Shown one piece after another: positions 456-61,417 of a DNA stretch of 64,000 nt. Source of the DNA: Candidatus Colwellbacteria bacterium CG10_big_fil_rev_8_21_14_0_10_42_22 (GTDB taxonomy: Bacteria; Patescibacteriota; Minisyncoccia; UBA6257; Colwellbacteraceae). The notes under the pieces were generated by a model. It had not been told where the DNA came from, made no database searches, and saw only the letters and a program-made list of their open reading frames with translations. The position numbers and the translations under genes were made by a program. The DNA lies in the NCBI GenBank assembly GCA_002773725.1, contig PFAH01000008.1, forward strand, positions 2,654-66,653. The letters run 5' to 3'. Every line of letters begins with the position of its first letter. Position 1 is the stretch's first letter.

Positions 456-1348
456 AGATTTTAGAGCTTAGTTCATCAGAGGCCGTTACTATTTTTTCTT
501 CAGTTAAGATTGTGAGAGAATATCCAACTCGAGCCCTAACGAATATAGATTTAGAAAACTATATCTCACAGGCGGTCTGGAAATTTTTTGATAAATGTAG
601 AAGCGAGGCGGCAGAAAGATTGAGCGTGGGGGAGATGGAGCTCGTTTTGAGCGACGTGCGCATTTTGGGCGTCAAGATAGATGGGCATCGTGTTATAAAC
701 CCAATCGGTTTTACAGGCAGAGAGCTTGAAATCAGCTTAAGCTTGACGGTTATCGGCAAGGGCGAGAGTGATGAGAATGTATATATGGTAGAGGGGGCTA
801 GTATGAGGGCTTATATTCTTTCACGTCTTTTAAATCTCGACAGGGCATTCTATGTAGAGAGCGATCAGAACAAAACGGGTATATATTATATCAACGGGTC
901 TGATATTCGCTATTTTAGCGGTTTTGATTGGGGTGGCGAGCATGCCGTGTCAGCTCTTCAAGAAATTTTAGAGATTGATGGCGATGTCCTTGAGAGAGTT
1001 TATAGAAAATATGCCAGAGGAGATGTCTCCGAGAGATTAGACAGAAGAATAGGCAAACCTTTCTATACAAATTTTGGCATATTGGTTAATGGCACCTTGA
1101 TGAATGTTAGGAATGCCGGTGCAATGCGGGGTAAGACGCCCCCCATTATTTATTTCAACCCTCTTTTTCCCGTTCCCGAAGGTGTTTATAGAAAAAACTT
1201 TACTTTTGGTAGGCATAAACTTAGATTTCAAAAGCCAGAGGATGAACTAGATATAGAAACTTTCATGAAAGACAATATTCATGGAGTGTATGAAGACCTA
1301 AACGATTTGGCTCGTCGAAGAATAAGTTGGCTTACGCCCAAGTCGTAG
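452..1348 (+). CDS. hypothetical protein, possibly a divergent actin-fold (FtsA/PilM-like) protein
   Basis: 298-aa ORF with an ATGA overlap with the upstream gene. The segment VRILGVKIDGHRVINPIGFTGRELEISLSLTVIGK and a later FDWGGEH resemble the FtsA subdomain pattern and the phosphate-2 region. There is no recognisable N-terminal phosphate-1 motif. Confidence 0.35.
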   Translation: MKILELSSSEAVTIFSSVKIVREYPTRALTNIDLENYISQAVWKFFDKCRSEAAERLSVGEMELVLSDVRILGVKIDGHRVINPIGFTGRELEISLSLTVIGKGESDENVYMVEGASMRAYILSRLLNLDRAFYVESDQNKTGIYYINGSDIRYFSGFDWGGEHAVSALQEILEIDGDVLERVYRKYARGDVSERLDRRIGKPFYTNFGILVNGTLMNVRNAGAMRGKTPPIIYFNPLFPVPEGVYRKNFTFGRHKLRFQKPEDELDIETFMKDNIHGVYEDLNDLARRRISWLTPKS

Positions 1349-4134: not shown

Positions 4135-4761
4135 ATGGCTAAAATACTTGAGAAAAAAGAAAGAAGCTTGGGGGTTAAACTTTTAAGAAAGGGAGAGCGT
4201 GCTAATTCTCCTAAGGCAGCTCTTTTACGTAAACCATACCGACCCGGTCCACAGGGAAAGAAATTCAGAAGAAAGCTTAGTGAATACGGCACCCAGCTTC
4301 AGGAAAAACAAAAGATTAAATTTAGTTATGGAGTTACTGAACGCCAGCTTCGCAATATCGTTAAAGAGGTTGAAAAAAGAGTGCTTAAGCAGGATATTTC
4401 AGCTACCAACGAGATTATCAAAACACTAGAAAGTCGTTTGGATAATGTTATTATGCGACTCGGCTTTACGGAAGGACGATCCTTGGCTAGACAGATGGTT
4501 TCACATGGACATTTCATAGTTAACGGAAAGAGAGTAAAAACACCCTCTTTTAGGGTGAAGGTCGGTGATAAGATATCTGTTCGTTCTCAATCGCGGGTAA
4601 TGCCCTATTTTGAGGAGTTAAATGACAAGATTAAGAAATATGAGCCCCCAACTTGGCTCAAGATAGACAAGGCAAAGTTGGAAGGAGAAGTTGTAGGTTC
4701 GCCGGAAGTCGCCGACGCACTTTTTAACGTAAGTTTAGTAGTCGATTACTATTCTAAATAA
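4135..4761 (+). CDS. rpsD: 30S ribosomal protein S4
   Basis: 208 aa; the RPGPQGKK...LSEYGTQLQEKQK N-terminus and the S4 domain HGHFIVNGKRVKTPSFRVKVGDKISV. Confidence 0.93.
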   Translation: MAKILEKKERSLGVKLLRKGERANSPKAALLRKPYRPGPQGKKFRRKLSEYGTQLQEKQKIKFSYGVTERQLRNIVKEVEKRVLKQDISATNEIIKTLESRLDNVIMRLGFTEGRSLARQMVSHGHFIVNGKRVKTPSFRVKVGDKISVRSQSRVMPYFEELNDKIKKYEPPTWLKIDKAKLEGEVVGSPEVADALFNVSLVVDYYSK

Positions 4762-4769
4762 ATAAAAAA

Positions 4770-5507
4770 ATGGAATACCAGTACTTAAGCGAAACAGTCA
4801 AAATTAAAAAAGTATCCGAAGATGAAACAGCCGGTGTTTTTGAGATAGAAGGGCTCTTTAGAGGTTACGGAATCACTATCGGCAATGCCCTAAGAAGGGT
4901 TTTGCTCTCGTCTTTGCCGGGCGCAGCCATCACCAGGTTTAGTGTTAAAGGTGCGGGTCATGAATTCACAACTATCCCGGGTGTGGTAGAAAATGTTGTG
5001 GAATTGGGACTCAATCTCAAGCAAGTAAGATTTACCTTCCATGCGGATGAACCACAGGAATTGATTCTAAAAGTAAAAGGCGAGGGCGAGGTTAAGGCCA
5101 AAGACATAAAGGGCAACGCCCAAGTAGAGATTAAAAATCCTGATTTACACATAGCAACTCTTGGCAATAAGACGGCTGAGCTAGATATGGTTTTAACAGT
5201 TGAGAAAGGTTTGGGATATCTACCCGTAGAGTCACAGAAGATTGATAGGTTGCCGATTGGGACAGTAGCCCTAGATGCTGTTTTTTCACCCGTAGTTAAT
5301 GTTAATTTTAGCGTAGATAACATGCGAGTAGGCGATCGCACGGATTACAACAGAGTAAAGCTTGAAGTTGAAACAGATGGCACCATATCACCATCAAGCG
5401 CTCTTCATAAGGCGGCCAATGTTTTGAGAGACCACCTAGGCAAGATATCTGACATAGAAGTTATTGATGAAGAAAAGCCGGAAAAGCCGAAAAAGGAAGA
5501 TAAATAA
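4770..5507 (+). CDS. rpoA: DNA-directed RNA polymerase alpha subunit (N-terminal domain only, 245 aa)
   Basis: FEIEGLFRGYGITIGNALRRVLLSSLPGAAIT is the alpha NTD signature. The gene lies between rpsD and rplQ as usual. Its length is consistent with absence of the alpha CTD. Confidence 0.88.
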   Translation: MEYQYLSETVKIKKVSEDETAGVFEIEGLFRGYGITIGNALRRVLLSSLPGAAITRFSVKGAGHEFTTIPGVVENVVELGLNLKQVRFTFHADEPQELILKVKGEGEVKAKDIKGNAQVEIKNPDLHIATLGNKTAELDMVLTVEKGLGYLPVESQKIDRLPIGTVALDAVFSPVVNVNFSVDNMRVGDRTDYNRVKLEVETDGTISPSSALHKAANVLRDHLGKISDIEVIDEEKPEKPKKEDK

Positions 5508-7046: not shown

Positions 7047-7804
7047 TGATGGCGAATCCAAAACCATATTTATCAATAGTCATTCCAGTTTATAACGAGT
7101 CCAAACGTTTGCCGTTGACCCTTCTTGATATAGATAAACACCTTTCAAAGGTTGATTTCACATATGAAATATTGATCTATAACGATGGTTCCACAGATGA
7201 CACCGTTGAAGTTGTAGAAAAAATGAAGAAGCTTATTCCAAATCTACGTGTGGATGGCTATCAAAAAAATCAAGGTAAGGGAACGGCGGTTAAAGAGGGA
7301 ATGCTAGAGGCCAATGGCAAATATCGTCTTTTCATGGATTCGGATAATTCCACCTCTATAGACCAATTTGAAAAAATGCGCCCTTTTATAGATAAAGGAG
7401 CACATGTCGTAATTGGCTCAAGAGACATAAAGGGGGCAGTCATGGAGCCACCCCAGTCCTTGCTTAAACGTATTATGGGAAATATGGGAAATTTGTTTAT
7501 CCAGATATTGCTTTTGCCGGGCATTTGGGACACCCAGTGTGGTTTTAAGTGTTTTAGCGAAGAGGCCTCTCTTAAAATATTTCCTCTCCAAAAGATTAAA
7601 CGTTGGGGATTTGATCCAGAAATTCTAAGTTTAGCTAAAAAGTTCGGTTATAAAATTGAAGAAATACCAGTTTATTGGATAAATGATACGGATTCAAAGT
7701 TAAGTCCATTTTCATATGTTCAAGTGCTTCTAGAGGTGGTAAAAATACGTTTTTGGTTTTGGTTCGACGCTTACGGTCTGCGAAAAAAACCGCAAATAAA
7801 ATAG
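7046..7804 (+). CDS. family-2 glycosyltransferase (dolichyl/polyprenyl-phosphate sugar synthase-like)
   Basis: 252 aa; LSIVIPVYNESKRL...YEILIYNDGSTDDT...FMDSDNST carries GT2 (GT-A fold) motifs, including the DxD-like DSD. Confidence 0.8.
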   Translation: MMANPKPYLSIVIPVYNESKRLPLTLLDIDKHLSKVDFTYEILIYNDGSTDDTVEVVEKMKKLIPNLRVDGYQKNQGKGTAVKEGMLEANGKYRLFMDSDNSTSIDQFEKMRPFIDKGAHVVIGSRDIKGAVMEPPQSLLKRIMGNMGNLFIQILLLPGIWDTQCGFKCFSEEASLKIFPLQKIKRWGFDPEILSLAKKFGYKIEEIPVYWINDTDSKLSPFSYVQVLLEVVKIRFWFWFDAYGLRKKPQIK

Positions 7805-7878
7805 GGTTTGGATAGCCCTTTACTCTACGCCAGGTTTTCTGTAGAATCTATGTTCGGTTGTTTAGTTATTGCTTAAAC

Positions 7879-8331
7879 ATGGATTATCTAACTAAGAAAA
7901 AATTAGCCGAACTTAAAGAAGAATTAGAAACCCTTAAAACAGAAGGGCGTAAATCTATTGCAGAGAATCTTAAGACGGCGAAAGAAATGGGCGATTTGTC
8001 TGAAAATGCAGAATATATTGAAGCTAGGGAACAGCAACAGAGAACTGAAAAGAAAATTTCCGAACTAGAACAGATGGTGCGTAATGCTGTTGTTATCGGT
8101 GTGCGCAAAAAACACGATGAGGTTGAAGTGGGCTCAACGGTTGCAGTTGAGCGTGATGGAGAGAAGTTCATTTTCCATATAGTTGGAAGCAATGAGGCAA
8201 AACCAGCAGAAGGATTCATCTCAAACGAATCTCCTTTAGGAGAAGCTCTTCTTGGACACAAAGAGGGGGAAGTTGTTGATTTTAAATCTCCTCGGGGGAA
8301 AGTTAAGTATAAGATTAATAAAATAGATTAA
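7879..8331 (+). CDS. greA: transcription elongation factor GreA
   Basis: The ATG at 7879 gives MDYLTKKKLAELKEELETLKTEGRKSIAENLKTAKEMGDLSENAEYIEARE, the GreA coiled-coil with the acidic tip. The C-terminal FKBP-like domain is present. The ORF track starts at a TTG at 7858. Confidence 0.9.
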   Translation: MDYLTKKKLAELKEELETLKTEGRKSIAENLKTAKEMGDLSENAEYIEAREQQQRTEKKISELEQMVRNAVVIGVRKKHDEVEVGSTVAVERDGEKFIFHIVGSNEAKPAEGFISNESPLGEALLGHKEGEVVDFKSPRGKVKYKINKID

Positions 8332-8355
8332 TTTTTTAGAGTTCTAAAAATAGAA

Positions 8356-8385
8356 TGACCCCCGTCGCTGTGGCGAAGGGGGTCA
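8356..8385. terminator. GC-rich hairpin GACCCCC-n14-GGGGGTC between convergent genes; T-run follows on the minus strand
   Basis: Read directly. On the minus strand the stem is followed by TCTATTTTTAG, so it probably terminates the 8948-to-8403 minus-strand cassette. It may also serve greA. Confidence 0.6.
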
Positions 8386-8402
8386 TTCGTCAGCGAAAGG
8401 GG

Positions 8403-8639
8403 TCAGGTGTTATCGAAGAGCAAGGGAAGGAATGTCATCATCGAGAGGATGGCCGTGACGATCCAGGCCAACACGCTCAAAATGTCGAGTGTCCTCCACG
8501 CCCAAGCATTCCAACCCCATTCTTCCGTTGTATTGGAAGCGAAGCCGGTGGCTAGGGCAAAGATGGCCACGCAGACCGCGATGAGAAGAAACTCCCACCA
8601 CGGATCAAACTCTTCCCTGTTCTTGCTAGACCAGGTCAA
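8403..8639 (-). CDS. hypothetical small membrane protein (78 aa, two hydrophobic helices) in a GC-rich insert
   Basis: ATG preceded by AAAGAGGTG. It lies 28 nt downstream of the 92-aa gene and is followed by the hairpin terminator at 8356-8385. Helices FLLIAVCVAIFALATGF and ILSVLAWIVTAILSMMTFLPLLF. Confidence 0.55.
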   Translation of the reverse strand: MTWSSKNREEFDPWWEFLLIAVCVAIFALATGFASNTTEEWGWNAWAWRTLDILSVLAWIVTAILSMMTFLPLLFDNT

Positions 8640-8669
8640 GGTGCACCTCTTTTTATCCGAGTGGTCTTA

Positions 8670-8948
8670 TCAAGAACGAATGGCGTAAGCCATGCCGTTC
8701 CGAATTTCCCAGCCATACTTCGTGTCCTTGCCGAAAGATGGCCAATGGATGATGTGCCCGTTGGGGTCGCGCCTGAAACGTCCCTTGAAACGCCCCCGAA
8801 TGGGTGTTGCCCCCTCCCACGCCTCATGAGCTTCGATGGTATGCGCGAAATCACCTCCCCCGAGCCTGCGGAGCATGTCTTTGAACTCTGGAGACACGCC
8901 CTTTCCTCTCCCGACGGGTTCTGCGCTGTTTCGTATGGTGTACGCCAC
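8670..8948 (-). CDS. hypothetical protein (92 aa) in a GC-rich insert
   Basis: GTG start preceded by GGGGAGG with a 6-nt spacer and a perfect TATAAT about 20 nt further up (plus coordinates 8967-8972, minus strand). GC is clearly higher than the flanks. Sequence MAYTIRNSAEPVGRGKG...GHIIHWPSFGKD; no family recognised. Confidence 0.55.
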   Translation of the reverse strand: MAYTIRNSAEPVGRGKGVSPEFKDMLRRLGGGDFAHTIEAHEAWEGATPIRGRFKGRFRRDPNGHIIHWPSFGKDTKYGWEIRNGMAYAIRS

Positions 8949-53760: not shown

Positions 53761-54114
53761 ATGGAAGAGATTAAGAGTATTGATAGAGACCGTTTGAGGG
53801 GTTGGGTGAGCGATAGAAGCGACTTCGTCCTTGTTGATATAAGAGATAGCGAAGATTACAAAGAGATGCATATCCCCGGGGCCAAAAATATTGGCTTGGA
53901 GTCCAAGGATTTTTTGGGTGAAATTTCTAAGTTGGCTTCCGATAAAAAAACGACGGTTGTTATCTATTGTTATGCTGGAAATTCATCTCCCAAGGTGGCT
54001 GAAAAACTTGTAAAAGTCGGATATGAAGACGTGTACGATTTTAGTGGTGGTATGGACGATTGGGAAGATGCGGGTTATCCAGTAGAAAAGAACGGACAAA
54101 TGATTTATAGGTGA
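53761..54114 (+). CDS. rhodanese-domain sulfurtransferase
   Basis: 117 aa; active-site loop CYAGNSS, with flanking rhodanese blocks VLVDIRDSEDYKEMHIPGA and FSGGMDDWEDAGYPV. Confidence 0.8.
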   Translation: MEEIKSIDRDRLRGWVSDRSDFVLVDIRDSEDYKEMHIPGAKNIGLESKDFLGEISKLASDKKTTVVIYCYAGNSSPKVAEKLVKVGYEDVYDFSGGMDDWEDAGYPVEKNGQMIYR

Positions 54115-54189
54115 ATCTTTTCATACTTTTTTGATGTGGCCTTTATTAAATCTTCTTTATATTAATGACGAAAATAGGGGATGGGTCTT

Positions 54190-54250
54190 AAAAACAGAAA
54201 CGCCCACCAAAGATAGCGAGCAGAATCTGCTCACGTCCCCAGTGGGCGCG
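54190..54250 (-). terminator. intrinsic terminator for the minus-strand small-gene operon (CGCCCAC...GTGGGCG with inner GAGCAG/CTGCTC; U-run on the minus strand)
   Basis: Read directly: plus strand AAAAACAGAAACGCCCACCAAAGATAGCGAGCAGAATCTGCTCACGTCCCCAGTGGGCG. On the minus-strand transcript the stem is followed by UUUCUGUUUUU. Confidence 0.6.
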
Positions 54251-54263
54251 TGATGAGGTGTTC

Positions 54264-54605
54264 CTAGTTTTCGTCCTCATCTTCAGCTTCAGAGAACCAC
54301 TTCTCGTTTTCGGGGGGCGCAATTCGCACCTCGACGACGTAGGAGCCCCCACAATCGTCGAGTTCCTGTCCACAGAACGGACAGATGTACTCGAGCAATC
54401 CATTGACCCGAAGATCCCCTCCTGGTGCTCTGCCCCCCGCATTGCATTCCCATTCCGTAGAAGAGTCAGCAATGGATGCACCGATTGCCTTGAAGTGTTC
54501 CTCGACAATCTCAATACAGGCACAGACATCCGGATCGATGAGGTCTGCCGAGCATTCGAATTTTTCGAAAGCCCTGCCAACGAAGTCCAAGTCGATGGGT
54601 TTCAT
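54264..54605 (-). CDS. hypothetical acidic protein with Cys pairs (zinc-ribbon-like), GC-rich island gene 5
   Basis: 113 aa; CSADLIDPDVCAC...EWECNAGG...ICPFCGQELDDCGG and the tail EAEDEDEN. AGAAGGGA lies upstream of the ATG. Last gene before the terminator. Confidence 0.5.
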   Translation of the reverse strand: MKPIDLDFVGRAFEKFECSADLIDPDVCACIEIVEEHFKAIGASIADSSTEWECNAGGRAPGGDLRVNGLLEYICPFCGQELDDCGGSYVVEVRIAPPENEKWFSEAEDEDEN

Positions 54606-54620
54606 ACTTCTTGTTCCCTT

Positions 54621-54989
54621 CTACGCAATCCAAAGACCGTGCAGACCGGATAGTTCACGCCTGAACACTCCGCCCCTCTTCTCCACATGCTCGCGAAACA
54701 TACGAAAAACGTTGTCCACGTTCTCCGCGTCGTACCACCCATCGTATAGACCATCATCATCGAGGGCGATGTAAATGAGTCCTTTTGGTTGGAGAGAAGC
54801 ATCGTGCTGGGAAATGACCTCCTCACGTTCTTCGTCCCAGAGAAGAATGTGACCCATGTTGGGCAGAAACCCCACTCTTTTCCCGAGGATTCTTGGATGG
54901 GATTTCTCCAAGTTGGCCAATGCCGTTCCGCCGGGGTGGTGTCCCTCTGTCCATCCATACCTCGCCCTATAGAGCCAAAGCGTTTCCAT
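54621..54989 (-). CDS. hypothetical protein, GC-rich island gene 4
   Basis: 122 aa; AAGGGG 5 nt before the ATG, and 11 nt after the stop of gene 3. The alternative frame 54602..54994 looks compositionally like noise. Confidence 0.45.
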   Translation of the reverse strand: METLWLYRARYGWTEGHHPGGTALANLEKSHPRILGKRVGFLPNMGHILLWDEEREEVISQHDASLQPKGLIYIALDDDGLYDGWYDAENVDNVFRMFREHVEKRGGVFRRELSGLHGLWIA

Positions 54990-55000
54990 ATCAACCCCTT

Positions 55001-55339
55001 CTAGGTACCGATGGTGTGAATACCGCGTTGCCCCGGATACTCTGGGGCCTCGACGATGGTTCGTGTCCTCACATACGCGTCGTAGTTGTCTTCATAAACC
55101 CAACCCAGGATTATTCCATTCAGGTTGTTGTCTTCGAAGAAAACTCGAATCTTATGACCAACATGTGGCCATGCTCCGGTGTGGTAGTTGAAGTGCTCAC
55201 CCTCCATCCATGAAAGAAGCCCTCCATTGGAAAGATCGAATTGGTGAATCTGGTAAGATTCGTTCAAACGAACTTCTCCCACCATATTCGTGACATCGAC
55301 CTCGATAACCACACCAGCATGCCAATCGCGATATGTCAT
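55001..55339 (-). CDS. hypothetical protein, GC-rich island gene 3
   Basis: 112 aa from the ATG at 55339 (MTYRDWHAGVVIEV...). The ATG overlaps the stop of gene 2 in an ATGA motif, indicating translational coupling. Confidence 0.45.
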   Translation of the reverse strand: MTYRDWHAGVVIEVDVTNMVGEVRLNESYQIHQFDLSNGGLLSWMEGEHFNYHTGAWPHVGHKIRVFFEDNNLNGIILGWVYEDNYDAYVRTRTIVEAPEYPGQRGIHTIGT

Positions 55340-55500
55340 GATCTGTGTCCTCCGGTTGTTATGAAGCGACGAAATCTCGGATTGTGGCGGTTGTCCCTGC
55401 ACTCAAGTCGAGCGGGCGCAACTCGCATCTTCTTGTCTTCACGATGCAGAAGTTTGGGAGAGCCCAACGCTTGTGCAACATGTCTCCAGAAATCGTTCAT
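55336..55500 (-). CDS. hypothetical small basic protein, GC-rich island gene 2
   Basis: 54 aa from the ATG at 55500, with GAGGAAG 7 nt upstream. The ORF track extends to a GTG at 55548, which has no ribosome-binding site. Arg/His-rich. Confidence 0.4.
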   Translation of the reverse strand: MNDFWRHVAQALGSPKLLHREDKKMRVAPARLECRDNRHNPRFRRFITTGGHRS

Positions 55501-55609
55501 AGTTCTCTTCCTCAGTTGTGAAAGAGCGAAGCCCTTTCTTTTCCCCACGGGGCTTATAGGTCTTGAATATGCAATATTTATAAGAGTCAGTCAACTTCGT
55601 TAGAGTTAA

Positions 55610-55625
55610 GCTATCTCAAGATAGC
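55610..55625. promoter_or_regulatory. near-perfect palindrome GCTATCT-CA-AGATAGC in the intergenic region upstream of the gene 2-5 operon
   Basis: Read directly. A TTGACT box (minus strand, plus coordinates 55589-55594) lies next to it. Candidate operator. Confidence 0.4.
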
Positions 55626-55746
55626 CATCGGATGCCAAAGGGCACTTTATCTCTAACGGGGTCAATTTTAATACACCCAAAAATGCATGAACCCCACCTT
55701 TGTGAAATCGGGCGGGATTCACGCAGATGGGGTTGTTGGGCTCGCT

Positions 55747-55983
55747 TTAGACGCGCCCTCGGATTCTGGGAAAAGAGAAGCATCGGTCGTGCTGATGGCA
55801 CCTCTCGGCGCTGTTGTAGATAGAAAGGCGAATTTCGCAGCCCTTCTCCGCGCAAATGCGTCCCGTGGGATACACCTTGTGTTTGCGGTTGCTTCCGCCG
55901 ATTCTTCTCGCAATTGTCGGATTGCGACGCGTAGTCGCTCCTCCAAAATTGCCTCCCACTCCCTCGTTCTCAAAGAGCGGCAT
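55747..55983 (-). CDS. hypothetical zinc-finger-like small protein, GC-rich island gene 1
   Basis: 78 aa; GGGAGG with a 6-nt spacer before the ATG. Cys/His pattern CAEKGC-x12-CHQHDRC. It is the first gene downstream of the divergent promoter region. Confidence 0.5.
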   Translation of the reverse strand: MPLFENEGVGGNFGGATTRRNPTIARRIGGSNRKHKVYPTGRICAEKGCEIRLSIYNSAERCHQHDRCFSFPRIRGRV

Positions 55984-56009
55984 CTTTTTCCTCCCTATCC
56001 CGATGCCTT

Positions 56010-56126
56010 AGACCCCTAAAATACAATTTTTAATTATTAAAAGTCAATATTCGTATTTGACTAGCGAAATAAATTGTGGCAATTTCTATATGTACATTGA
56101 AGTCTAAGTTGAAGGGAGCGTTCATC
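56010..56126. promoter_or_regulatory. divergent control region between the minus-strand and plus-strand small-gene operons
   Basis: AT-rich, with AGTCAA (56042-56047) and TTGACT (56057-56062) forming an inverted pair of -35-like boxes 9 nt apart (AGTCAA-ATATTCGTATT-TGACT). Genes with good ribosome-binding sites start on both sides. Confidence 0.45.
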
Positions 56127-58803: not shown

Positions 58804-59210
58804 GCAGGGAGGCAATTTAGATAGCAGCTTTGTGGACTCTACACAGTCGAGATAGTGATTGTTCTTTACATCAGGAGTCCGCAAAGAGGAAAGTCCGGAC
58901 ACTCCTCCGACTTAGGTCGGAGAGCAGGGTAGCGGGTAATACCCGTCGTTCGAAAGAATAGAGGTGCGAGCAGTGACGCTCTGTTTAGAAATATGCAGAG
59001 AGGCCCGATCCCAACGTAGATGGTCTAATCCCGCCATAGGGGCAAAAAGCGGGAGTGAAACGGCTAAATCCTTACCTGAGTGCAAGGCCGTGCTCCGACT
59101 TCGGTCGGAGAGAGCCGCACGAGCTTGAGAGTAATCGATGGCCTAGATAGATTGCTATCATCCGACCACGCGTCGGATTACAGAATCCGGCTTATTAATT
59201 GCCTCCCTGC
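58804..59210 (+). ncRNA. rnpB: RNase P RNA (bacterial type A)
   Basis: P1 pairing GCAGGGAGGCAATT (5-prime) with AATTGCCTCCCTGC (3-prime). P4 strands AGGAAAGTCCGGACACTCC and ACAGAATCCGGCTTAT. Conserved AGGGTAGCGGGTAATACCCG, GGGCAAAAAGCGGGAGTGAAACGGC and TGAGTGCAAGGCCGTGCTCCGACTTCGGTCGGAG modules. Confidence 0.85.
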
Positions 59211-59393: not shown

Positions 59394-60146
59394 ATGTCAA
59401 AGTATTACACACCTCGAAGAACAAGAAATATCTATGAGCCAAGCTCGGATGAGCCCTTTAAGTTGAGTCGCTCTAAGGTAGATCTTTTCATTGAATGCCC
59501 AAAATGTTTCTATCTTGATCGTCGTCTTGGAGTTGGCAGACCCCCCGGCTATCCGTTTAGTTTAAATTCTGCGGTTGACTCGCTTTTAAAAAAAGAATTT
59601 GATATCCACAGAGCTGATAAAACGGCTCATCCCTTAATGGAGCAATATGGAATAGACGCTGTTCCTTTTGAACACGAAGATATAGATAAATGGAGAGAAA
59701 ACTTTGTTGGTGTTCAGTATTATCATAAACCAACAAACTTTGTCTTAACCGGAGCTATAGATGATGTTTGGGTAAATCCCAAGGGAGAGTTATTAATTGC
59801 TGACTATAAAGCAACTTCTAAAGATGGAGAAGTTGATCTAGATGCAGATTGGCAGATTAGTTACAAACGCCAAATGGAATTCTACCAATGGTTAATGCGT
59901 CAAAATGGATTCGACGTATCTTCGGTTGGGTATTTTGTTTACGCCAATGGCAAGACGGACACAAAGGCGTTTGACGGCAAACTGGAGTTCGATGTTAAGG
60001 TGATTCCCTATGAGGGCGATTCGTCTTGGGTAGAGCCCACTCTCGAGAAGATTAAATCGACTCTAGATGCAAATAATGTTCCGGAGGCAGATGATGATTG
60101 TGATTTTTGCAGATATAGAAAAGCGGTGGTGGAAGTGGGCGAATAG
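59394..60146 (+). CDS. PD-(D/E)xK nuclease with four-Cys cluster (Cas4-like / DUF83-type)
   Basis: 250 aa; N-terminal ECPKCFYLD and C-terminal CDFCRYRK Cys pairs flank the nuclease core GAIDDVWVNPKGELLIADYKA (D...D/E-x-K). Confidence 0.65.
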   Translation: MSKYYTPRRTRNIYEPSSDEPFKLSRSKVDLFIECPKCFYLDRRLGVGRPPGYPFSLNSAVDSLLKKEFDIHRADKTAHPLMEQYGIDAVPFEHEDIDKWRENFVGVQYYHKPTNFVLTGAIDDVWVNPKGELLIADYKATSKDGEVDLDADWQISYKRQMEFYQWLMRQNGFDVSSVGYFVYANGKTDTKAFDGKLEFDVKVIPYEGDSSWVEPTLEKIKSTLDANNVPEADDDCDFCRYRKAVVEVGE

Positions 60147-60171: not shown

Positions 60172-60504
60172 ATGAAGACGCTTCTTCGTTGGATAGCTCT
60201 GACGCTTACGATATTGGCTCTTTCGAATCTTCTACCATCTGTCAGTATAGACGGATTTTTGACAGCCCTGGTGGCTGCCTTAGTTTTGGGTATCATCAAC
60301 ACTTTTTTAAAGCCGATTATTACCTTCGTTGCTTTCCCCATAAACCTCCTTACATTTGGTCTTTTTACATTAGTTATTAACGCTGGCCTTGTGATGTTGG
60401 CAACTTATATTGTGCCGGGATTTGAGGTAGCTGGTTTTTGGTCTGCAGTTTTGTTCGGTTTTCTACTATCGATTATTTCACCCATTATTTCACTTATTTT
60501 TTAA
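60172..60504 (+). CDS. DUF360 / phage-holin-4-like four-TM membrane protein
   Basis: 110 aa; FLTALVAALVLGIINTFLKPIITFVAFPINLLTFGLFTLVINAGLVMLATYIVPGFEV matches the PF04020 pattern. Confidence 0.6.
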   Translation: MKTLLRWIALTLTILALSNLLPSVSIDGFLTALVAALVLGIINTFLKPIITFVAFPINLLTFGLFTLVINAGLVMLATYIVPGFEVAGFWSAVLFGFLLSIISPIISLIF

Positions 60505-60582
60505 CCCGTTAGGAACAGATCGTTCCTAGATGGTCGTAGCCCACGCTTTTGCAGAGTGTTTTCTAACGGGCTGAAGCGCCTA

Positions 60583-60688
60583 TTGACACCTAGTTTTCTA
60601 TGTTATAGAATTTACTTGTCTGCTGAAGGATTCGTCTTTCGGTAGACAACCAAGAAAGGCCCCCGTCAGGGGGTTTTTCTTTTTTCCC
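60583..60688 (+). ncRNA. candidate small RNA: a strong promoter (TTGACA-17-TAGAAT) followed about 50 nt later by a canonical intrinsic terminator
   Basis: -35 at 60583-60588 and -10 at 60606-60611. Predicted transcript of about 70 nt (60619-60688) contains the internal stem TTGTCT...AGACAA and the terminator GGCCCCCGTCAGGGGGTTTTTCTTTTTT. No ORF with a ribosome-binding site. Confidence 0.5.
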
Positions 60689-60802
60689 CATCCGCCTGGT
60701 TATTCATTAGTTACAAATAGCAGTCCGCCTTTGGCGGAGCGCATATCAAATTGACAATTATGAATATTTGTATCATCATCCGAGAGTCCTTTAAAATACA
60801 TC

Positions 60803-60856
60803 CTCTTGCAAGCTTCTTAGTAAGTTTGTAATTAGCTTTCTAAGAAGCTTGCAAGA
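60803..60856 (+). promoter_or_regulatory. long perfect inverted repeat (17-bp arms, 19-nt loop) in the pgsA 5-prime region
   Basis: CTCTTGCAAGCTTCTTAG...CTAAGAAGCTTGCAAGA, read directly. Each arm contains the 8-bp palindrome CTTGCAAG. It ends about 25 nt before the pgsA ATG. Confidence 0.55.
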
Positions 60857-60880
60857 ATTACTCCAAAGAAAGGGGCAGGC

Positions 60881-61417
60881 ATGCTAAAGAAATTGCCCAA
60901 CTGGTTGGGCTACGCGAGAATGGTCCTGACCCCTGTGGTTATGGGCTTCATCTACTACGGTGACAACGAATTCTGGACGGGGTTCGTTTTCGCCATCGTT
61001 GTGGCGACAGATGGCCTTGATGGCCCCATCGCCCGAGCAACACATTCGACCAGCCAATTTGGCATCATGTTGGACACGCTGGCAGACAAGTTCTTGATTG
61101 CCGGTTGTGTCCTCGCGTTGGTAGCCAAGGACCCAGTTTGGCTTTGGGCGGGATTCATCATCATCGACCGTGATTTCTTGGTGATGACGCTGAAGGCAAA
61201 CGTAGGCGGGGGCTTCATCAAGGCATCCAACTTGGGAAAGATCAAGATGGGCCTTCAATCGGTGGCTATCTACCTGGTCATCAATCCTTGGCCTTTCAAT
61301 GGTGCCACCGGCTGGAACTCTCCTGGTGGGGCGGTGATGGCGTTGGCTCTTTGGTTCACCCTCTTCTCGGCTTGGGACTACTACCACAAGTACACCCGTT
61401 TCTTGCGGTGGAATTAA
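60881..61417 (+). CDS. pgsA: CDP-alcohol phosphatidyltransferase (phosphatidylglycerophosphate synthase-like)
   Basis: 178 aa; D-G-x2-A-R ... G-x3-D-x3-D signature in ATDGLDGPIARATHSTSQFGIMLDTLADKF. GC is clearly higher than the neighbouring genes. Confidence 0.75.
   Translation: MLKKLPNWLGYARMVLTPVVMGFIYYGDNEFWTGFVFAIVVATDGLDGPIARATHSTSQFGIMLDTLADKFLIAGCVLALVAKDPVWLWAGFIIIDRDFLVMTLKANVGGGFIKASNLGKIKMGLQSVAIYLVINPWPFNGATGWNSPGGAVMALALWFTLFSAWDYYHKYTRFLRWN

Follow-up and report, generated by a model that had tools for sequence, protein, structure and literature searches.

A conserved two-hairpin element downstream of a PF04020 gene in Colwellbacteria is probably the gene for a small non-coding RNA of an undescribed family

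Introduction

Between the gene for a "holin-like" membrane protein and pgsA, this Colwellbacteria genome bears a short plus-strand stretch where a promoter-like site is followed by two hairpins, and the question is whether this is a small RNA gene in its own right or a regulatory leader of the gene downstream. Patescibacteria (candidate phyla radiation, CPR) are for the most part uncultured bacteria with tiny genomes; in the literature searched we found no described small or regulatory RNA of the CPR, Patescibacteria or Colwellbacteria. An earlier reading made from the letters alone (the sequence-only reading) had proposed an independent small RNA of ~70 nt, with a cis-acting pgsA leader or attenuator as the alternative. 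We analysed the element in the window, i.e., the whole 64-kb stretch of DNA under study, and in homologous loci of related genomes, designated below by L numbers. The results support the independent RNA: promoter, spacing, helices and terminator are kept in 11 loci, and positions 60583-60685 probably represent a self-contained gene for a non-coding RNA of ~65-70 nt belonging to an undescribed family.

Results

Anatomy of the element

The features referred to below are as follows.

58808-59208, plus strand: RNase P RNA (bacterial class A), 82.9 bits, E 1.8e-25; the score is below the Rfam gathering score of 100, and the RNA is absent from the default scan
59394-60146, plus strand: PD-(D/E)XK nuclease, 250 aa, Cas4-like, cysteine-rich
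60172-60504, plus strand: PF04020 (Phage_holin_4_2) "holin-like" membrane protein, 110 aa, four predicted membrane segments
60583-60685, plus strand: candidate small RNA element (direct reading and fold)
60583-60611, plus strand: P1, predicted sigma-70-type promoter; -35 box TTGACA 60583-60588, 17-nt spacer, -10 box TAGAAT 60606-60611
60616-60649, plus strand: hairpin 1; conserved 13-bp helix 60618-60630 with 60635-60647, UUCG loop 60631-60634
60648-60651, plus strand: linker, AACC here; 2-4 nt, with GACC, ACCU or UUU in relatives
60652-60685, plus strand: hairpin 2, predicted intrinsic terminator; 13-bp stem 60652-60664 with 60669-60681
60751-60779, plus strand: P2, second promoter-like site, for pgsA; TTGACA, 17 nt, CATCAT
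60881-61417, plus strand: pgsA-like CDP-alcohol phosphatidyltransferase, the downstream neighbour in this genome
61551-61624: tRNA-Gln(CUG), 3' of pgsA in the order on the plus strand

Direct reading of the sequence confirmed the presence and positions of all the features that the sequence-only reading had described in this interval. It had regarded P1 as the strongest sigma-70-like match, and indeed P1 agrees with the consensus at 11 of 12 positions and is the sole site with at least 11/12 matches on either strand of the 64-kb window. By itself such a match is within chance, because ~2.1 matches of this quality (at least 11/12) are expected in shuffled sequence. Across the loci the site retains the form of a sigma-70-type promoter, with TTGACA- and TATAAT-like hexamers 16-18 nt apart and a drifting spacer, and we consider P1 a strong promoter of this type, its activity being predicted. 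Since in all loci 6-7 nt separate the -10 box from the first pair of hairpin 1, transcription should start at the foot of this hairpin, at a predicted position of 60617-60619.

Hairpin 1 forms a continuous helix of 15 bp in this genome (60616-60630 with 60635-60649), two pairs more than the conserved 13. The TTGTCT/AGACAA stem of the sequence-only reading is thus present (60616-60621 with 60644-60649), but its extent of 6 bp fell short of the true helix of 13-15 bp. Given the two extra pairs, two linker bases (60650-60651) remain unpaired in the window fold, and the linker is the sole internal single-stranded stretch besides the loops. The GGCCCCC-GTCA-GGGGG terminator that had been claimed was found as well, with a stem that extends to 13 bp: the core GGCCCCC (60658-60664), GTCA and GGGGG (60669-60673) is followed by TTTTTCTTTTTT (60674-60685), so that the five C-G pairs of the core are prolonged by eight pairs of an A/U extension around the GUCA loop (60665-60668). 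The U-run 3' of the stem reaches 60685, the stem-loop being followed by UUUUUCUUUUUU. A GC-rich stem-loop with a U-run directly behind it is what characterizes an intrinsic (Rho-independent) terminator, and hairpin 2, the predicted terminator, has this form.

The 77-nt stretch folds on the plus strand with -40.6 kcal/mol (z = -7.1), and none of 200 shuffles was as good, whereas its reverse complement in the window reaches only -23.1 kcal/mol (z -1.9). The stability of the fold exceeds chance, while the P1 match alone does not. About 80% of the RNA bases are paired, the minimum-energy fold makes up 40% of the ensemble for the window sequence, and the two hairpins are independent of each other. 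According to the unpaired probabilities, only the two tetraloops (UYCG and GNNA-like), the variable 2-4-nt linker and the U-tail are single-stranded, and besides the U-tail there is no accessible stretch of 5 nt or longer. The same probabilities and the fold revealed no alternative or antiterminator structure competing with the terminator. In agreement with the sequence-only reading, no ORF with a ribosome-binding site was found, and a comparison of the homologues on both strands revealed none with a constant start and frame; small ORFs are limited to group-specific ATGs (e.g., MKRPRQGVFHF), none of which is conserved.

From this anatomy a simple scheme can be proposed. P1 would start transcription at the foot of the 13-15-bp UUCG hairpin, and four bases past this hairpin the 13-bp GC-core hairpin with its U-run would terminate it, giving an RNA of two hairpins that begins flush with a helix. 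Such an RNA should be very stable because of the flush helix at the 5' end and the terminator at the 3' end.

Homologous loci

Conservation in relatives, which had been named as a check on the proposal, settles the reality of the observation: the unit occurs once per locus in 10 further distinct loci from related genomes, 11 with the window. It consists of TTGACA, 16-18 nt, TAnAAT, the 13-bp hairpin with the UYCG loop, a 4-nt linker and the 13-bp terminator. Contigs with an identical pgsA protein were 100% identical over the region compared and were uninformative. The only other relative of this pgsA (64% amino-acid identity; L005, L006) has its genes in the same order, and a copy of the element can be recognised there. 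A search with the exact 19-base core pattern returned nine stretches of metagenome contigs, comprising six new copies, the window itself (L014) and two chance matches, and a looser pattern gave three stretches in GTDB species genomes, one of them Colwellbacteria GWA2_46_10; scanning the GTDB genomes with a pgsA protein pattern found nothing. Three further copies (L023, L026, L027) came from contigs with homologues of the PD-(D/E)XK nuclease, collected with no use of an RNA pattern, so that four loci (these and L005) were reached through neighbouring proteins rather than through the RNA itself.

A covariance model built from 8 sequences recovered all 11 distinct loci at 85-99 bits, one copy in each, and detected no extra copies in the window or in the loci. 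Of 23 pattern matches in viral contigs the model confirmed none, and a search of phage records gave no match to the RNA, which indicates that the RNA is not phage-associated. It is also missing from four non-syntenic PD-(D/E)XK loci (L028, L029, L053, L054) and from its expected place in the syntenic L024, where the PF04020 gene and tRNA-Gln are kept. One contig deserves a remark: L020 (CAYIAN010000004.1) is labelled as uncultured Candidatus Saccharibacteria, yet its gene block is of the Colwellbacteria type and its RNA region matches that of L010 exactly; a binning or naming error probably explains the label.

Conservation and covariation of the RNA

All 11 loci bear TTGAC(A/G), a spacer of 16-18 nt and TA(T/G/C)A(A/C)T (the promoter of L023, with an 18-nt spacer, was read by eye). 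The mean pairwise identity among the 11 loci clearly follows the borders of the functional parts: it amounts to 0.97 in the -35 box, 0.86 in the -10 box and 0.86 in the RNA body, and to 0.32 in the promoter spacer, 0.30 in the 20 nt upstream and 0.27 in the 30 nt downstream; the short 5' leader, at 0.36, is unconserved. The PF04020 gene has a DNA identity of 0.61 with 0.33 at third codon positions, and therefore its synonymous sites are saturated; the spacers, the flanks and these third positions set the background at 27-33%. In four genomes whose PF04020 proteins differ by 10-16% the RNA body is 100% identical.

Standard pairs fill 99.3% of the cells in the 11-sequence alignment, vs. 45-60% when the partners are slid by one to three columns. 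In hairpin 1, 98.6% of the cells are paired, four pairs have changed on both sides, and U13·G30 and G17·U26 are invariant; in the terminator stem, which lies outside the exact core search pattern, all cells are paired in the 11 loci, two pairs are double-changed, and G48·U63 is invariant. Altogether, six pairs are double-changed and three G·U pairs never vary. The double changes include U-A to C-G at 10:33, A-U to G-C at 15:28 (L023), A-U to C-G at 19:24 (L026, L027), A-U to U-A at 42:69 and G·U to C-G at 47:64. Covariation scored 0.196 vs. 0.091 in shuffles, none of 500 of which reached 0.196; with no more than five to seven distinct RNA sequences, which are related phylogenetically, these statistics overstate the significance. 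In six loci the search pattern itself prescribed the 19 core positions, so the invariance of the core among these is partly by construction; the promoter, the lower stem, the linker and the terminator lie outside the pattern, and in the protein-anchored loci the core does vary, with compensation. As 18 of the 26 pairs never vary while neutral sites are saturated, both the sequence of the helices and their pairing appear to be selected.

The covariation also bears on the nature of the selected molecule. Inverted repeats, together with the breaks of synteny immediately downstream in several lineages, could point to a DNA-level element, such as a palindromic site for protein binding or recombination, and the 33-aa minus-strand ORF that one gene caller put across the element (L003) might be taken for a tiny-protein gene. 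The invariant G·U pairs and the changes from G·U to A-U or C-G make the repeats imperfect in DNA and strand-specific, neither viral contigs nor phage records yielded copies, and no ORF keeps its start or frame, so that we consider a DNA element or a tiny protein extremely improbable. On the minus strand the G·U pairs become C·A mismatches and the fold is weaker, which identifies the plus-strand RNA as the functional molecule. The ORF in L003 (1749-1850, minus strand) is a wrong gene call.

Gene neighbourhood: a leader, an operon end or a gene of its own

Upstream of the RNA the neighbourhood is constant, with RNase P RNA, the PD-(D/E)XK nuclease and the PF04020 protein; the PF04020 gene is found upstream in all 11 loci at a distance of 20-600 nt. 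Both the PD-(D/E)XK and the pgsA-like protein of the window have identical counterparts in a metagenome-assembled Candidatus Colwellbacteria CG10 genome. The downstream gene varies, being pgsA in five loci (the window, L005, L013, L023, L027), directly tRNA-Gln in three (L011, L012, L017), and in the remaining three an unrelated small protein (L010, L015) or an Ice_binding protein (L026). A position of the L027 RNA between two minus-strand genes was rejected: the calls at 7787-8047 and 8204-8812 (both minus) are erroneous, and plus-strand PF04020 and pgsA genes flank the RNA there. As to the wider block, tRNA-Gln(CUG) is a constant downstream member in the window, L005, L011, L012, L017, L023, L024 and L027, and in L024, without the small RNA, it directly follows PF04020. 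An equivalent gap of ~500 nt separates RNase H from the PD-(D/E)XK gene in the related loci. The PD-(D/E)XK protein itself is unusually conserved, with at least 8000 database proteins matching at E < 1e-20 and ~67-83% identity among the best 120 of these at least 8000 matches, which come from Colwellbacteria, Harrisonbacteria, Magasanikbacteria and other Patescibacteria.

If P1 were the promoter of the downstream gene (pgsA in this genome) and the terminator a regulated stop, the element would be a cis-acting leader or attenuator. Read-through regulation is conceivable, since the downstream gene has the same orientation as the RNA in 11 of 11 loci, and pgsA follows in five of them; moreover, when 60400-61000 was scanned permissively against Rfam, the highest-scoring family in the interval, though below threshold, was a leader (Phe_leader, 26.1 bits vs. 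the gathering score of 55). Against this stand the inconstancy of the downstream gene, the lack of any pairing that competes with the terminator, the independence of the two hairpins and the absence of a leader peptide; hairpin 1 does not overlap the terminator, unlike antiterminators of the RAT or ANTAR type. In addition, a conserved consensus -35 box lies past the terminator. P2-like TTGAC(A/G)-17 sites occur between the terminator and the downstream gene in L005, L010, L013, L015, L023 and L027, i.e., in most loci whose downstream gene is protein-coding, and a conserved GT(A/C)CCTTT motif follows P2 at the likely start of the transcript. The -10 boxes of these sites are weak (CATCAT, CATTAT), which favours the leader; still, as predicted from the sequence, P2 shows that pgsA would not depend on P1. 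The variable downstream gene, the RNA's own promoter and the lack of an alternative fold and of a conserved ORF argue for an independent small RNA, and we regard a leader or attenuator, the alternative of the sequence-only reading, as improbable.

The upstream operon has also to be considered. In L010, L011, L015, L023 and L027 the -35 box begins 7-40 nt past the end of the PF04020 coding sequence and no terminator intervenes, which suggests that the terminator of the RNA probably also ends the upstream PD-(D/E)XK / PF04020 operon in most loci. One could go further and view the element as the 3' end of this operon only, a tandem terminator or stabiliser of its mRNA with a functionless promoter, and the same five loci speak for that. 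Yet the promoter hexamers and their spacing are kept in 11 of 11 loci while the spacer is random, and a terminator stem needs no 86% identity where synonymous sites are saturated. Furthermore, in L012, L013, L017 and L026 a convergent gene of 153-157 aa lies between PF04020 and the unit and blocks same-strand transcripts from upstream, so that only its own promoter can transcribe the unit there. We find an operon end of this kind improbable too, and slightly more so than a leader. As an independent gene, the RNA would be expressed from P1, and we infer that it acts in trans.

Comparison with known RNA families

A scan of the whole window against Rfam 15 at gathering scores reported only three tRNAs. 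In the permissive scan of 60400-61000, RNAI reached 23.9 bits vs. a gathering score of 47 and ctRNA 19.2 vs. 50; these scores, like that of Phe_leader, reflect a generic shape of a hairpin plus a terminator. Judged from its sequence, the element is a new family of an ordinary kind, a putative bacterial small RNA gene.

In layout it comes closest, by analogy, to 3'UTR small RNAs transcribed from a promoter of their own. Like the type I members DapZ and MicL of enterobacteria, it is a short RNA with a same-strand promoter at or after the end of the upstream coding sequence, and in most loci one terminator would serve both the mRNA and the small RNA; this layout is present in the window, L005, L010, L011, L015, L023 and L027 and absent from L012, L013, L017 and L026. 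Unlike DapZ and MicL, which are Hfq-dependent and bear a conserved single-stranded seed, the present RNA is seedless and unrelated in sequence, and in four loci a convergent gene detaches it from the upstream gene. With RNAI and ctRNA/CopA (RF00106, RF00489) it shares an architecture in which a long 5' hairpin leads straight into a terminator, and a length of ~70-100 nt, but those RNAs are plasmid-borne, antisense to their target and equipped with 6-7-nt kissing loops, whereas ours is chromosomal, has tetraloops and lacks an antisense partner. The pheL leader (RF01859) likewise combines promoter, hairpin and intrinsic terminator upstream of a gene, but a leader peptide, an alternative antiterminator and a constant downstream gene are all lacking here. 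Finally, CsrB/RsmZ and 6S RNA resemble it in the proposed binding of a protein by a stable, highly transcribed structured RNA with no mRNA pairing, and differ in the repeated GGA loop motifs and the open-promoter bubble, respectively, neither of which our RNA has.

Several assignments were rejected. A sponge of the CsrB/RsmZ type does not fit a single GGA that lies inside the stem and reads GGC in L026 and L027. SRP (4.5S) RNA is discarded as hairpin 1 is fully paired with a UYCG instead of a GNRA loop, and no SRP match was obtained at E <=10. For a type I toxin-antitoxin pair, duplexes with the start region of PF04020 were no better than those of shuffled RNA in 9 loci, and a protein of the size of PF04020 (110 aa), with four predicted membrane segments, is no short toxin. 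By eye, the ACC of the linker is not conserved in the register of a tRNA minihelix, and the defining features of a 5S or 23S fragment, of CsrA sites and of put-like or RAT/ANTAR antiterminators are absent.

Discussion

Possible mode of action

Small RNAs made from their own promoter and terminator commonly act by base pairing. Were this the case here, hairpin 1 would open, and one of its arms would pair in trans with ribosome-binding sites or other mRNA regions; the candidates are the pyrimidine-rich 3' arm GUCUUUCGG, which is anti-Shine-Dalgarno-like, and the purine-rich 5' arm CUGAAGGAU, which is Shine-Dalgarno-like. The upper stem is conserved in sequence and rich in A-U and G·U pairs, and nearby ribosome-binding sites read GAAAGG(A/G)G, as such pairing would lead one to expect. 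Nevertheless, opening the helix would cost ~20 kcal/mol, there is no unpaired stretch of at least 5 nt, and where an arm has changed (L023, L026, L027) the compensating change lies in the hairpin itself, as under selection for the helix. Nor does complementarity rise above chance: apart from A/T runs, exact complementarity between the RNA and the 64-kb window was at the chance level, duplexes with the PF04020 start regions of 9 loci were no better than shuffled controls, and inspection by eye showed no more than 4-5 bp with the pgsA leader and the GUACCUUU motif. A conserved accessible seed was not found, as only the tetraloops, the variable 2-4-nt linker and the U-tail are unpaired. We therefore hold a trans-acting base-pairing RNA to be rather unlikely.

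Tentatively, we favour over seed pairing a different mode, in which the RNA may work not as an antisense molecule but as a specific protein-binding hairpin, i.e., a decoy, a scaffold or a recognition element. Protein binding is suggested by the ~80% of bases paired in two tetraloop-capped helices, by the purifying selection on the helix sequences, the three invariant G·U pairs among them, and by the absence of a conserved single-stranded seed; drawn as it is from this absence, the idea rests on negative evidence. In a more specific version, which we find as unlikely as seed pairing, the RNA would be a lineage-specific housekeeping RNA of Colwellbacteria, produced constitutively, with helices that are read sequence-specifically by a protein, and it would titrate or guide a core factor. 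In such a housekeeping role hairpin 1, which looks like a Shine-Dalgarno / anti-Shine-Dalgarno duplex, could serve as its mimic.

The distribution of the RNA appears narrow, and we rate its importance as moderate. With 86% identity next to saturated synonymous sites, it is a clear and cheap target for existing groundwater metatranscriptomes. The covariance model can be used to annotate these genomes, where gene callers put spurious ORFs over the RNA. If protein binding proves true, a regulatory or housekeeping function specific to this lineage would be indicated.

Other structures in the vicinity

Within the window, the stretch ~54100-56100 differs in composition, with a higher GC content (0.50) and a reversed GC skew. 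The sole ORFs there overlap one another, are 110-133 aa long and lie on both strands; the stretch gave no Rfam match, and the five ORFs scanned (within 54188-55603) gave no Pfam match.

Directly 3' of the PF04020 stop codon, a structured element (60505-60572) is formed by an outer stem, CCCGTTAG/CTAACGGG, around inner hairpins. A related unit in L005 (~4560-4700) and L006 (1-183) is a 67-nt tandem repeat of 2.7 copies that are 100% identical, and it extends into the -35 box of the promoter of the small RNA.

On the other side of the RNA, the two structures that the sequence-only reading had placed near pgsA are both real. The hairpin TCCGCC-TTT-GGCGGA (60724-60738) lies just upstream of P2; it is conserved, with a changed loop, in L005 only and is absent from the other loci. 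The long inverted repeat in the pgsA 5' region (60804-60856) forms a 5'UTR hairpin kept in three loci, the window, L005 and L010, where the region from P2 through the 5'UTR spans 60751-60880, 4866-5001 and 551-680 (minus strand), respectively; in L010 the gene behind it is not pgsA. Compensatory changes affect 11 pairs of this hairpin, and UAG...CUAAG close to its top is invariant. The 5' CCUUU of the region may pair with the ribosome-binding site, in which case the region would be a possible translational control element.
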